Of a stretch of DNA of 6,255 nt, positions 1 through 3,790 are shown piece after piece. Origin of the DNA: a virus (Duplodnaviria > Heunggongvirae > Uroviricota > Caudoviricetes); IMG/VR virus record IMGVR_UViG_2728369593_000012, positions 1-6,255 of that record; one strand, given 5' to 3'. Positions within the stretch are counted from its first letter, which is position 1. The number at the start of each line of letters is the position of its first letter. The notes beneath the pieces are model-generated. The model searched no databases. It worked only from the letters and a program-made list of their open reading frames with translations, and was not told the DNA's origin. The translations under genes were made by a program, and so were the position numbers.

Positions 1-8
1 GAATAGTC

Positions 9-200
9 ATGACCAAAGAAGAAAAAATTCTTTATTTATTCCAACTATCGGTTAAGACTCACACTGCATATCAGACTGCTGCCATGACATCAGATAAAAA
101 TTACAGTACGTCAGAAAACCCGATAGACGACATAAGCAAGCTTTACGATAAGTTCGAAGCACTACTCGATAAAAAGTTTGCTGAGGCTGGGCTTGAGTGA
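9..200 (+). CDS. Hypothetical small protein (63 aa as given). The reading frame is open back to the window edge, so the gene may be 5'-truncated here.
   Basis: ORF in the track; no obvious Shine-Dalgarno before the ATG at 9; no in-frame stop between position 1 and 9. Lies in an AT-rich segment (18 G+C in the first 60 nt by direct count). No recognisable motif. Confidence 0.3.
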   Translation: MTKEEKILYLFQLSVKTHTAYQTAAMTSDKNYSTSENPIDDISKLYDKFEALLDKKFAEAGLE

Positions 201-426
201 TTGTTGAATAATCGACAAAACCCAACTTAAATTTTCGTCAGTGGGCTCGATGCCATGTGCGGTGAGCTCACTTTTCAAAACTCCAAGCAATTCAGAGCTG
301 ATTTTCAATATATCTGCTTGATTTCTAACTATTCCCACTTTTCCTCTCTTGGTCTACGCGCGGTCATGTTTTACGCCCAAACGACTTCACAGTTATTGTT
401 TAAAATCTGGACTTTCATTTTGTTCT

Positions 427-648
427 TTAACCTCCAGATTTCCGCGCATCTAAAGGCGCATTCTCATTTGGTGTGAACTGAATAGTTGTGCTGATATTGA
501 TTAATGCCCCGACACACAAGACTACGCACTCAGAGCAGATAGCAACTTCATCTTTTCCGCCTTTGGCGATGATTTTTTTTGCCTGCAGCTCGTTTGCGCC
601 ACAAAACGAGCATGTGAAATAACGGTTCATTTGCGCTCTCTTACACAT
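427..648 (-). CDS. ClpX-type C4 zinc-finger (ClpX N-terminal zinc-binding domain-like) small protein
   Basis: Translation contains FTCSFCG...KKIIAKG...VAICSECVVLC, which aligns by eye with the E. coli ClpX N-terminus (LLYCSFCGK...KLIAG...VYICDECVDLC): two CxxC pairs with conserved spacing. An alternative start at the second Met (ATG ending at 630, MNRYFTCSFCG) is preceded by a weak GAGAG SD-like motif; the ATG at 648 has none. First gene downstream of the putative leftward promoter. Confidence 0.6.
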   Translation of the reverse strand: MCKRAQMNRYFTCSFCGANELQAKKIIAKGGKDEVAICSECVVLCVGALINISTTIQFTPNENAPLDARKSGG

Positions 649-801
649 AGTATTTAACGAATCATCCGGTCATTCATACGCCACCGGCGGCTACTTCGTG
701 GGCGTCCTGCCTGTTCGTTTTTGACATTTACTGACTGCTTACGACACATGCACCGTGTTGCAACCAGATTTTGTTGTAATCCTGTAGTTGGTCTGGAACA
801 A

Positions 802-859
802 AAGATAAAATTAAATTGCGAGATATGCAAGTGATATTTGCGGGATATGCAAATTGATA
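802..859 (-). promoter_or_regulatory. OL-like operator pair with putative leftward pL-type promoter
   Basis: Two tandem 15-bp sites, TTGCGAGATATGCAA (816-830) and TTGCGGGATATGCAA (838-852), inside a ~21-bp direct repeat; same TTGC-N7-GCAA dyad as the cI/cro intergenic site at 1619-1633. On the minus strand a -35 TTGCAT (830-825), 17-bp spacer and -10 TATCTT (807-802) can be drawn; the promoter assignment is tentative. Confidence 0.4.
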
Positions 860-862
860 GGT

Positions 863-886
863 AATAAAAAGCCACCTTTCGGTGGC
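863..886 (-). terminator. Rho-independent terminator downstream of cI
   Basis: Plus strand aaaaaGCCACCtttcGGTGGC (866-886); on the minus strand this reads GCCACC-GAAA-GGTGGC followed by TTTTT, 20 nt after the cI stop codon (906-908). Confidence 0.55.
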
Positions 887-905
887 CGATGGAAGGATAT
901 TGAGG

Positions 906-1598
906 TTAATTATGTCTCTTAAGGGTTTGCGACTGACTGATTAAGACCTTTCCAAAGACCATGAATCGGTGTTCGTTTTCGCTAGTAATTCCCCATTCAC
1001 GGTAAATCTGGTTATCAGAAATCACCAGCAGTTTGTCAGGAATCATTTGAAGTCTTTTAACGTATATTTTGTCATCAAAACCAAAGACATATATACCATC
1101 ACCATCAAACTGATTGATGCTGACATCAACGAAGATGAGATCTCCTGGCTCAATGGTTGGACACATACTGTCCCCACGAACGTTGATAACTTTGATGTGA
1201 TTGGCTGGTCGTCCGCCGAACATTGATACAGCATTATCAGTTCTGTATTCGATGGCATGAATCACATCAATGACATCACCGCCCTGGATAAGGCCATTTC
1301 CCGCACTGGCACTGATATCCAGCATTTCAATACGGAACACATCCTTCACCTGCGCAACATCCTCATCATTACTGTTTTTATATACAGTATTACTTTTGTG
1401 GGCAGAGGTAAAGAGATCAGCAATATCAACACCTAAGCTCTTGGCAATATTACTCAGTGTTTGTTCGGTAAATTGTTTTTGCTTACCCGTTTCTAAGCGC
1501 GAGATGTTCGCCGCATCTACTCCTATTGCTTCAGCGAGATCGGCGATTTTCATGTTCTTCGCTTGGCGAAGTTGTCTGACTCGGTTTCCTATGTTCAT
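906..1598 (-). CDS. cI: CI-type phage repressor (N-terminal XRE-family HTH, C-terminal S24 LexA-like autopeptidase domain)
   Basis: 230 aa. N-terminus has an HTH pattern (KIADLAEAIGVDAANISRLETG). C-terminus has the S24 signature GDSM (Ser144) and KRL (Lys181), and a candidate Ala-Gly cleavage site at SASA-GNG (A99-G100). Divergent from a cro-like gene, typical of lambdoid immunity regions. Confidence 0.9.
   Translation of the reverse strand: MNIGNRVRQLRQAKNMKIADLAEAIGVDAANISRLETGKQKQFTEQTLSNIAKSLGVDIADLFTSAHKSNTVYKNSNDEDVAQVKDVFRIEMLDISASAGNGLIQGGDVIDVIHAIEYRTDNAVSMFGGRPANHIKVINVRGDSMCPTIEPGDLIFVDVSINQFDGDGIYVFGFDDKIYVKRLQMIPDKLLVISDNQIYREWGITSENEHRFMVFGKVLISQSQTLKRHN
1370..1389. promoter_or_regulatory. 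Near-consensus SOS (LexA) box inside the cI coding sequence
   Basis: TACTGTTTTTATATACAGTA: perfect CTGT-N8-ACAG core with TA flanks and an AT-only spacer, matching the E. coli LexA box consensus TACTG(TA)5CAGTA at all conserved positions. Lies in codons 70-77 (linker) of cI. Only such site in the window. Confidence 0.5.
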
Positions 1599-1695
1599 GC
1601 GTTTATTACATTTCTTTATTGCGTGATAAGCAAATCAACTTGCGCAAAATAATTGCGTGAAATAACATGCATAACGCGCAATATTTGGAGGGCGT
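1599..1695. promoter_or_regulatory. Divergent cI/cro operator-promoter region (OR-like, with pRM-like and pR-like promoters)
   Basis: 97-bp intergenic region between divergent cI and cro. Operator-like dyads: TTGCGTGATAAGCAA (1619-1633) and, in reverse orientation, ATGCATAACGCGCAA (1667-1681); further TTGCG/CGCAA half-sites at 1640-1647 and 1653-1660. Candidate leftward promoter: -35 TTGCTT (1633-1628) and -10 TGTAAT (1610-1605) on the minus strand. Candidate rightward promoter: -35 TTGCGC (1640-1645) and -10 TAACAT (1663-1668). Confidence 0.6.
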
Positions 1696-1956
1696 ATGCA
1701 ATCACCATTACGAAATGTGCGTAAGGCGCATGGTTTCACTTTGCAGCATGTTGCTGCGGGTGTTCAAGTCAATCCAGCGACGTTGAGTCGTATTGAGAGG
1801 CTGGAGCAGATTCCATCTATCGAGCTTGCAGAACGTTTAGCCAATTTTTTTAAGGGTGAAGTCAGCGAAATGCAGATTCTTTATCCGGCACGTTTTCAAT
1901 CTAGCCAAAACCAGAATGGGTTTAAACCACAGGAACAGGAGGTGAACCGTGGGTAA
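1696..1956 (+). CDS. cro: Cro-like XRE-family HTH transcriptional regulator
   Basis: 86 aa; ATG preceded by GGAGG (1687-1691). HTH pattern FTLQHVAAGVQVNPATLSRIE. Divergent from cI. 3' end overlaps the next gene by 8 nt. Confidence 0.75.
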   Translation: MQSPLRNVRKAHGFTLQHVAAGVQVNPATLSRIERLEQIPSIELAERLANFFKGEVSEMQILYPARFQSSQNQNGFKPQEQEVNRG

Positions 1957-2500
1957 GCATCACTGGAAAGTAGAAAAACAGCCTGAGTGGTACGTGAAAG
2001 CTGTCAGAAAAACTATCGCAGCGTTGCCGGGGGGGTACGCTGAAGCTGCTGACTGGCTGGATGTAACAGAGCACGCATTATTTAACCGCCTTCGTGCCGA
2101 TGGCGATCAGATTTTCCCGCTGGGATGGGCAATGATTTTGCAACGTGCTGGTGGAACTCACTTCATTGCTGACGCTGTGGCGCAGTCTGCAAATGGCGTC
2201 TTTGTGTCTCTTCCTGATGTCGAGGATGTGGACAACGCCGATATCAACCAACGCCTGCTGGAAGTCATTGAACAGATCGGCAGTTATTCAAAACAGATTC
2301 GTTCAGCAATCGAAGACGGTGTAGTGGAACCGCATGAGAAGACAGCAATTAACGATGAGCTGTACCTCTCAATTTCGAAGCTGCAGGAGCATGCAGCTCT
2401 GGTCTACAAAATCTTTTGCGTTTCAGAAAGTAGTGACGCCCGCGAGTGTGCAGCTCCGGGCGCCGTGGCGTGTCGTGACTGTGGAGAAACTAACGCATGA
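1949..2500 (+). CDS. CII-like / YdaT-like phage regulatory protein (lysis-lysogeny regulator analogue)
   Basis: 183 aa; GTG start at 1949 preceded by AGGAGG (1937-1942); an in-frame TGA at 1943-1945 prevents upstream extension. Positioned immediately after cro, as in cI-cro-cII (lambda) and racR-ydaS-ydaT (Rac/CP-933P) modules. Family assignment is from recollection of YdaT/CII-like proteins, not a search. Confidence 0.55.
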
Positions 2501-2859: not shown

Positions 2860-3790
2860 ATTAACCGGCTATGTATGGGATGGTTGCGCTGCATCAGGCA
2901 TGAAATTATCCAGCGTGGCAATTATGGCCCGCCTGGCTGATTTCAGTAATGACGAAGGTGTGTGCTGGCCATCAATTGAAACCATTGCCCGCCAGATTGG
3001 CGCGGGAATGAGTACCGTCAGAACGGCTATCGCACGGCTGGAAGCAGAAGGCTGGTTAACGCGTAAGGCGCGTCGCCAGGGTAACCGCAATGCGTCGAAT
3101 GTTTATCAGCTTAACGTTGCGAAGCTTCAGGCAGCGGCATTTTCTCAACTGTCAGATTCTGACCCGTCAAAATCTGACGCATCAAAATCTGACCCGTCAA
3201 AATTTGATGCGTCGAAATCTGGCAAAAAAGCGGGTTTTCACCCGTCAGAATCTGGCGGGGATCCGTCAGTAAAATCAAAACATGATCCGTCAGATAAAAA
3301 AACTTCTCGTCCGGACGCTTCGCAACCGGACACGCAGACGGCTGAACAGGAGTTTTTAACTCGCGATCCTGATGCGGTTGTATTCAGCCCTAAAAAGCGC
3401 CAGTGGGGAACGCAGGATGATTTGACCTGCGCACAGTGGCTCTGGAAAAAAATCATCGCCCTGTACGAGCAGGCCGCCGAATGTGACGGCGAGGTGGTTC
3501 GTCCCAAAGAACCGAACTGGACAGCCTGGGCAAACGAAATTCGCCTGATGTGTGTGCAGGATGGTCGTACTCATAAACAAATCTGCGAGATGTACAGCCG
3601 CGTCAGTCGCGATCCGTTCTGGTGCCGTAACGTGCTCAGCCCGTCGAAGCTGCGGGAAAAATGGGATGAGCTTTCCCTGCGCTTATCGCCGTCCGTCAGC
3701 ACGTACACCGAAAAACGCGAAGACCCGTACTTCAAAGCCAGTTACGACAACGTGGACTACAGCCAGATCCCGGCAGGATTCAGGGGGTGA
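2849..3790 (+). CDS. Phage replication initiation protein (N-terminal winged-helix DNA-binding domain; O-like / DnaT-like C-terminal region)
   Basis: 313 aa; ATG with GAGG 5 nt upstream. N-terminal pattern ARLADFSNDEGVCWPSIETIARQIGAGMSTVRTAIARLEAEGWL is typical of phage replication-initiator HTH domains. Low-complexity linker encoded by the iteron array. Occupies the O-gene position after cII. The C-terminal homology is recalled, not searched. Confidence 0.65.
   Translation: MSTKLTGYVWDGCAASGMKLSSVAIMARLADFSNDEGVCWPSIETIARQIGAGMSTVRTAIARLEAEGWLTRKARRQGNRNASNVYQLNVAKLQAAAFSQLSDSDPSKSDASKSDPSKFDASKSGKKAGFHPSESGGDPSVKSKHDPSDKKTSRPDASQPDTQTAEQEFLTRDPDAVVFSPKKRQWGTQDDLTCAQWLWKKIIALYEQAAECDGEVVRPKEPNWTAWANEIRLMCVQDGRTHKQICEMYSRVSRDPFWCRNVLSPSKLREKWDELSLRLSPSVSTYTEKREDPYFKASYDNVDYSQIPAGFRG
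3151..3300. repeat. Iteron array (putative phage replication origin) inside the replication initiator gene
   Basis: Four tandem 15-bp units at 3158-3217 (TCTGACCCGTCAAAA / TCTGACGCATCAAAA / TCTGACCCGTCAAAA / TTTGATGCGTCGAAA), plus further CCGTCAG copies at 3241-3249, 3262-3269 and 3286-3293 in both orientations. Internal dyads GTCAGAtTCTGAC (3151-3163) and CGTCAaaatcTGACG. Followed by an A-rich stretch (3271-3303). Mirrors the lambda ori-within-O arrangement. Confidence 0.5.

Follow-up and report, generated by a model that had tools for sequence, protein, structure and literature searches.

Candidate left operators and a predicted leftward promoter beside cI in the immunity region of an SfII-related prophage

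In phage lambda, dyads of the OR type recur beyond cI, where they overlap the leftward promoter PL, and a terminator shortly before OL halts the co-directional cI transcript. The lambda OL comprises three sites of 17 bp, rexA and rexB stand between it and cI, and the early-left operon starts with N and nutL. In P22 and 434, OL/PL directly adjoins the repressor gene, and no exclusion genes are known to intervene. A further variant is phage 933W, the OL of which holds two repressor sites only and no OL3 (PMC5977221).

The DNA analysed here (6255 bp, hereafter the window) is the early-regulatory, or immunity, region of a lambdoid prophage. Shigella phage SfII matches 96% of the window at 97% identity, and the SfII record gives a matching gene order of cI, cro, a cII-like regulator, an O-family replication protein, dam, RusA and a KilA-N protein. 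The genes that frame the region of interest in the window are the following.

427..630, minus strand: first ORF of the predicted PL operon in the variant present in the window (listed as ORF 427-648), with a ClpX-type zinc finger
906..1598, minus strand: cI repressor, 230 aa, with HTH_3 and Peptidase_S24 domains
1696..1956, plus strand: cro-like HTH gene with an HTH_3 fold, annotated as Cro in SfII
1949-2500: CP76-type cII-like gene, assigned from a domain match

The far side of cI resembles lambda OL/PL in that OR-type dyads overlap a leftward promoter, predicted here, adjacent sites are 22-24 bp apart, and the co-directional cI transcript runs into a terminator just upstream of the sites. 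Unlike lambda, the window has two such sites instead of three, each of them a 15-bp TTGCR-N5-CGCAA dyad and not a 17-bp site, no rexA or rexB between cI and OL, neither an N gene nor nutL, and an OL-OR distance of about 0.8 kb as compared to 2.3-2.4 kb in lambda (textbook value and PMC2685085). An early-left operon headed by N and nutL is not found in the window, no boxA is present on the predicted transcript, and no N-like ORF emerged from the ORF list or from domain and phrog matches in the window; SfII-type phages have been reported to lack both N and cIII (PMC3851460). The lack of N and nutL does not exclude an OL/PL identity, because some lambdoid phages, e.g. HK022, are also without them. 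The absence of any gene between cI and OL is shared with P22 and 434, whereas the operators differ from theirs and both of these phages encode an antiterminator of the N type (gene 24 in P22). In the P22-like phage BTP1, bstA sits between the repressor gene and the left operon, and both layouts thus occur among relatives. The earlier note had pointed to a compact immunity region without rex-like genes; the description is correct, but such compactness is not unusual among lambdoid phages.

With 933W the window shares exactly two repressor-type sites at OL as well as an immunity type that is common in E. coli prophages, including those of Stx phages (Stx2a_WGPS2 and Stx2a_1447 carry the module of the window). 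Conversely, repressor and operator sequences are unrelated between the two, and binding and non-cooperativity were measured in 933W whereas the window is known from its sequence.

Candidate left operator sites and predicted PL

The elements between the cI stop codon and the predicted leftward start are listed in the order in which the cI transcript would meet them.

860..887, minus strand: intrinsic terminator of the cI transcript, stem-loop 887..870 followed by a T-run, TTTTTATTACC
838..852: candidate distal OL operator (OL2-equivalent), TTGCGGGATATGCAA, 22 bp from the proximal site, 16.4 bits
816..830: candidate promoter-proximal OL operator (OL1-equivalent), TTGCGAGATATGCAA, covering the predicted -35 hexamer and 9 bp of the PL spacer, 19.4 bits
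825..830, minus strand: predicted PL -35 hexamer TTGCAT, inside the proximal operator
802..807, minus strand: predicted PL -10 hexamer TATCTT, after a 17-bp spacer

The earlier note had proposed that 816-830 and 838-852 form an OL pair sharing a dyad with 1619-1633, and the letters read exactly as it claimed. Its distances agree equally well with the measured ones: the left sites, said to be about two helical turns apart, are spaced 22 bp from start to start; the foot of the terminator hairpin lies 17 bp (estimated as about 20) from the end of site 838-852; and the cI stop codon (906-908) is 53 bp (estimated as about 50) from the same site, so that no gene fits between cI and OL. The terminator hairpin has a predicted stability of -13.2 kcal/mol with z = -3.3 relative to shuffled sequences. 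A hairpin with T-run of unrelated sequence occupies the same place in 11 further loci, including two without an intact OL.

Both left sites are of the form TTGCG-N5-YGCAA and match two sites in the cI/cro gap, 1619-1633 and 1667-1681. The pattern TTGC-N7-GCAA is found three times in the window against an expectation of 0.26, a count reached in one of 200 dinucleotide shuffles, and the fourth site at 1667-1681 surfaces once up to two mismatches are allowed. For the matrix scan that the earlier note had suggested, the weight matrix was trained on 23 sites taken exclusively from other phages and prophages in order to avoid circularity. Scanning the 6.2-kb window returned exactly four sites of 16.3-19.4 bits (816, 1619, 838 and 1667), followed by a next best score of 8.4, while dinucleotide-shuffled windows contained a mean of 0.037 sites at or above 16.3 bits. 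The four sites are distributed two per flank of cI, with none elsewhere in the window. A third OL site was not detected within 650-905, neither by the matrix scan nor by a search allowing up to three mismatches. The operator consensus for the candidate CI sites is TTGCR-N5-CGCAA, and full-text literature searches yielded no description of SfII or ST64B operators.

Based on the hexamers TTGCAT and TATCTT with their 17-bp spacing, leftward transcription is predicted to start near 794-795, in agreement with the position near 795 that the earlier note had anticipated. As a match to the sigma-70 consensus, the promoter is weak (7/12) and its -35 element no better than the operator half-site itself, albeit the geometry is kept in all relatives with an intact OL. 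A consensus promoter scan of window positions 1-2100 reported no promoter at a threshold of 9/12, and for this reason PL and its rightward counterpart PR were assigned from conserved geometry. In the ten tabulated loci the -35 position reads TTGCAT, TTGCAC or TTGCGC. The -10 hexamer reads TATCTT, TATCAT, TATGGT or TAATTT in every relative with an intact OL and begins exactly 8 bp past the proximal site; its T, A and final T (T-A-x-x-x-T) are invariant, and its distance from the TTGCRN of the proximal site is exactly 17 bp even though the spacer sequence changes. Moreover, the predicted PL is the best promoter on the minus strand within 150 nt upstream of a structured leader RNA (see below), from which it is 82 nt away. 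The context of this RNA in other phages lends the predicted PL independent support, and the assignment hence draws on the 17-bp geometry, the analogous cro promoter and the leader-RNA evidence.

It should be noted that the first ~50 nt of the predicted PL transcript (747-800, minus strand) are conserved with mEp460-type phages, with a 7-nt indel in this stretch. Homology of the left arm breaks at about 747 in this lineage, where PL and the RNA motif are separated by an additional ~70 nt of leader.

Comparative footprint and alternative readings

Thirteen relatives were compared: SfII, one Shigella prophage with 100% CI identity, three phages of the mEp460 group (mEp460, Stx2a_WGPS2 and PhiR63_1), and eight loci with CI identities of 66-92%. 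Following the cI stop codon, the order in these relatives is hairpin and T-run, distal site, 7-9 bp, proximal site and -10-like hexamer. The arrangement is found in Shigella, E. coli, Citrobacter, Trabulsiella, Buttiauxella, Salmonella ST64B, Citrobacter phiNP and Klebsiella Kp4873-4. Screening one genome from each species provided eight loci with CI identities of 66-100% (Shigella, three from Citrobacter, Pseudescherichia, Klebsiella, Trabulsiella and Buttiauxella), to which a protein search of phage records added ST64B (CI 83%), Klebsiella Kp4873-4 (71%) and Citrobacter phiNP (69%). Nine of these 11 loci keep a distal TTGCR-N5-CGCAW, 7-9 bp, a proximal TTGCR-N5-CGCAA, 8 bp and the -10 hexamer. 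In the two exceptions (L009 and L010), which look like decayed prophages, one or both left sites are gone.

The variation is unevenly distributed over the sites. In the proximal site of the ten tabulated loci, positions 1-4 and 11-15 are invariant (10/10) while positions 5-10 vary, and the start-to-start spacing of the two sites in relatives is 22-24 bp. The mEp460 group shows ~79% identity across the homologue of 747-886 as compared to ~94% over those parts of the window that align; even so, TTGCG and YGCAA are retained in both sites, with centres of AGATA, CATTA, GGATA, ATATA or AGATG and a spacer of 7, 8 or 9 bp. Every relative with an intact OL has two left sites. The predicted recognition helix of CI, ANISRLETGKQK, is nearly invariant in the relatives that carry the operator motif. 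Conversely, the motif is absent from both flanks in BTP1 and PhiR34_1, where CI is ~43% identical, its N-terminal domain 29% identical and the helix different. To judge from these alignments, the half-sites are constant wherever the CI recognition helix is conserved. The comparative data, with the same order and invariant half-sites in relatives, are the most compelling evidence and bear out the OL-pair reading of the earlier note, and we consider 816-830 and 838-852 to be very probably CI operators (OL) acting on PL. A dozen phages with different left arms share homology with the window from 747-753 onwards, shortly past the predicted PL start, and others from 655; the break at 747-753 indicates that OL/PL travels with cI and cro as one immunity module.

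Among the alternatives, the one that accounts best for the data is still improbable. Here, the sites would be auxiliary ones, bound by CI but without a promoter, that stabilise a CI oligomer or a loop to OR, the left operon being transcribed from elsewhere; the flanking FL and FR sites of phage 186 serve as the model. The poor sigma-70 match (7/12), the negative promoter scan and an OR only ~0.8 kb off, a distance at which looping is feasible, are in line with such a role. What it leaves unaccounted for is the T-A-x-x-x-T found exactly 17 bp from TTGCRN in every intact relative while the spacer sequence changes. In addition, no better promoter is present on the same strand within the 150 nt upstream of the leader RNA, and strong consensus promoters occupy the corresponding interval from terminator to leader RNA in other immunity types.

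Somewhat less probable again, and very unlikely in our view, is that the sites serve the cI transcript as a roadblock or termination aid, or are bound by Cro only, and have no part in repression of a left promoter. Such a reading could appeal to the distal site beginning just 17 bp past the terminator stem and, as regards Cro, to the HTH_3 fold that it shares. However, the terminator is a canonical hairpin with T-run that needs no help, the left sites match those on the other flank of cI, the half-sites are constant together with a conserved CI recognition helix, and a roadblock leaves the fixed -35/-10 geometry unexplained.

An origin of the repeats by chance, or as a by-product of coding in the minus-strand ORF 654-875 (73 aa, spanning the sites) or in the plus-strand ORFs annotated as hypothetical proteins over the equivalent stretch of mEp460 and PhiR63_1, is extremely improbable and, on the sequence comparison, already effectively refuted, given that four sites flank cI where 0.037 of such score are expected per window, that conservation is dyad-symmetric and not codon-like, and that inter-site indels of 1-2 bp together with the 7-bp indel at 747-760 break any frame among relatives. 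As a gene in its own right, ORF 654-875 was rejected; it has no family match and indels break its frame in relatives.

The right flank of cI and a proposed mechanism

CI of the window is 99.6% identical to SfII CI. Its translation displays the Ala-Gly, GDSM (Ser) and VKR (Lys) motifs required for autocleavage, and no close solved relative was found in the PDB (best E = 1e-4, ClgR/UmuD'). The elements in the cI/cro gap are as follows.

1619..1633: candidate OR-side operator adjoining cI, TTGCGTGATAAGCAA, 17.9 bits, overlapping the likely PRM -35 (TTGCTT, 1633..1628)
1640..1668, plus strand: predicted PR, TTGCGC (1640-1645), 17-bp spacer, TAACAT
1667..1681: candidate OR-side operator adjoining cro, ATGCATAACGCGCAA, 16.3 bits, overlapping the start site and the last bases of the predicted PR -10

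The two strong sites of OR are 48 bp apart, and only half-sites are found between them, namely TTGCGCAA and a TTGCG at 1653. The -35 element of the predicted PR lies inside TTGCGCAA, an invariant palindrome of half-sites, and TTGCGCAAGT of the PR region is conserved in all relatives. The PR -10 is TAACAT in the window and TAATAT in mEp460, and in mEp460-type phages the site at 1667-1681 retains its half-sites with an altered centre. The cI gene is devoid of a Shine-Dalgarno sequence, and all relatives have a TGTAAT 6 nt ahead of the start codon; PRM is assigned on account of this hexamer, and the arrangement suggests a leaderless PRM transcript as in lambda. As OR is not lambda-like and its best site covers the likely PRM -35, the logic of the switch is not to be copied from lambda.

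Two relatives (L012, 1368-1382; L014, 1367-1381) contain a perfect operator-like dyad, TTGCGATTTTCGCAA, within the initial codons of cro and 50 bp away from the OR site that adjoins this gene. The equivalent in the window (1717-1731) is a degenerate GTGCGTAAGGCGCAT of 8.4 bits.

Returning to the left flank and to its reading as OL/PL, the following mechanism can be proposed. In the lysogen, two CI dimers would occupy the two 15-bp dyads, the TTGCR half-sites of which have their centres one helical turn apart. The -35 hexamer TTGCAT (830..825) would lie under the proximal dimer together with the upstream half of the 17-bp spacer; as the proximal operator extends over both, a bound CI dimer would exclude RNA polymerase from PL. 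The distal site, two helical turns upstream, appears placed for pairwise cooperativity as in lambda, and binding is probably cooperative since the sites are 22-24 bp apart as they are there. Looping to the two OR sites ~0.8 kb off may add to this. The terminator at 887..870 ends the co-directional cI transcript, which would allow for repressor synthesis without read-in to the lytic left operon. Upon autocleavage of CI via its S24 domain, PL would fire leftward through the structured leader RNA (720..654) into the small early genes.

The first of these genes in the window, at 427-630, is 67-73 aa long and encodes hardly more than a ClpX-type C4 zinc finger (PF06689, 1.4e-10; phrog_5259, a family listed by PHROG as of unknown function). 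Translation probably begins at the second ATG, with AAGAGAG ahead of it, for a product of 67 aa. The ORF is borne on a 230-bp cassette (422-655) that is missing from SfII; it is also found directly 3' of the RNA motif in three further loci (L034, L054 and L057). The zinc-finger protein could be a decoy for partners of the ClpX N-domain. The O-family replication gene contains, at 3158-3221, a 15-bp unit, TCTGACCCGTCAAAA, repeated 4.3 times in tandem. The repeats are probably origin iterons, by analogy to lambda O, and give rise to a spurious Rfam match to mir-5880.

The leader RNA and the reach of the immunity type

The predicted PL leader includes one further element.

654..720, minus strand: structured RNA motif of 67 nt, at about +75 to +141 of the predicted transcript, 91.7 bits with a covariance model

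The motif consists of a closing helix, P1, around two hairpins, the P2 loop reading GGCRUAUGAA, and contains an invariant stretch, GGCAGGAYGCCCACGAAGUAGCCGCC; as copies were gathered by an exact 17-mer, the invariance of this 17-nt core is by construction. According to blastn, it is present in 53 GenBank phage records, mostly under no annotated feature, from phages of Escherichia, Salmonella, Shigella, Yersinia, Pectobacterium, Pantoea, Klebsiella and Aeromonas as well as T5-like Providencia phages, and more than 120 IMG/VR contigs contain the 17-nt core. In 39 diverse copies, the proposed structure (a closing helix of 6 bp, an invariant hairpin of 3 bp and a hairpin of 5-7 bp) is paired in 93% of cells, whereas registers slid by 1-3 columns pair in just 21-43%. 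Eight pairs show double, compensatory changes; covariation is strong in two helices, and its score was reached by none of 500 shuffles. RNAalifold recovers the same helices, and G-U pairs point to the transcribed strand. The single-sequence fold is not exceptional in stability (z = 0.05), and the case for the motif rests on covariation for this reason. From these comparisons, there is little doubt that the motif represents a real RNA structure. No relevant Rfam match was found for the whole window (E up to 1) or for positions 600-900 (E up to 10), and full-text searches returned no description of the core sequence.

The genomic context of the motif was evaluated for 94 distinct upstream contexts with many operator types. 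A promoter of at least 9/12 is found within 150 nt in 50 of the 94, as compared to 3/94 controls, and in 41 of these 50 the -10 element ends 10-29 nt before the motif. A run of at least six T precedes the motif in 65/94 contexts versus 3/94 controls. The enrichment of promoters and T-runs identifies the motif as a marker for the 5' end of early-left transcripts across many immunity types. E. coli K-12 is among the hosts: its prophage e14 has a copy of 72.4 bits (NC_000913.3, 1202110-1202177, minus strand; L140, 6111-6178) that is unannotated in RefSeq, lies between ymfK (repressor) and ymfJ, and follows the -10 of a consensus promoter, TTGACA-18-TAATGT, at a distance of ~13 nt.

The closest described elements are the putL RNAs of HK022 and HK639, which are likewise structured RNAs of ~70 nt just downstream of PL (predicted in our case) in phages without N. 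The architectures differ, as put comprises two long stem-loops side by side (PMC9378689) and not a closing helix around two hairpins. An identity with HK022-type put was rejected; blastn was negative, and so was the covariance model on HK022 and on the annotated putL-like RNA of HK639. With the covariance model, one copy is obtained per phage; no second copy in the PR operon, analogous to putR, was detected in the window or in 14 kb of SfII. The HK639 record likewise annotates a single putL-like element, and next to it an "M3-like RNA" downstream of the cII-like gene (L141, 37910-37969). An arginine-rich 31-aa peptide across the motif (MCRKQ...RMIR) was also considered as an N-like protein and discarded: ST64B has an in-frame TAG and lacks a start codon between the -10 and the motif, and the variation is compensatory in helices, not synonymous. 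In several relatives (L005 at ~2440-2500, L024, L029, L058 and others) and in a T5-like Providencia phage, a small hairpin and a boxA-like GCTCTTTAACAA follow 15-35 nt past the motif, reminiscent of the boxB-boxA order of rrn operons. No boxA is found on the motif strand in the window or in SfII.

The motif may thus be a new class of cis-acting RNA of early transcripts. Its position and the lack of N are the grounds for suspecting antitermination or an anti-Rho function; by analogy, a processive antiterminator that is protein-independent or Nus-assisted, put-like in role but unrelated, is tentatively considered the likeliest function, although the odds are somewhat against it.

The immunity type itself is widespread. 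The stretch 790-1700 is present at a coverage of at least 80% in 1040 of 5426 complete E. coli genomes (~19%), where it is annotated as XRE/HTH regulators only; E. coli strain H2 is 100% identical to the window across this interval. The type is further found in SfII, mEp460, ST64B and several Stx2a phages, with records saying only "XRE family regulator". In kind, the OL/PL layout read from this sequence is ordinary, and the operators of this immunity type are previously undescribed in the literature searched. As the kind of element is textbook, the result is a useful annotation and not a surprise. It defines an operator consensus, a position of OL/PL and module boundaries for a common immunity type; the consensus allows homo-immunity and derepression targets to be predicted and provides a starting point for work on the induction of Stx phages. 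The unannotated leader RNA has more discovery potential than the operators. If the proposed function is true, the motif would be the antiterminator of many N-less temperate phages, of some T5-like phages and of the K-12 prophage e14.
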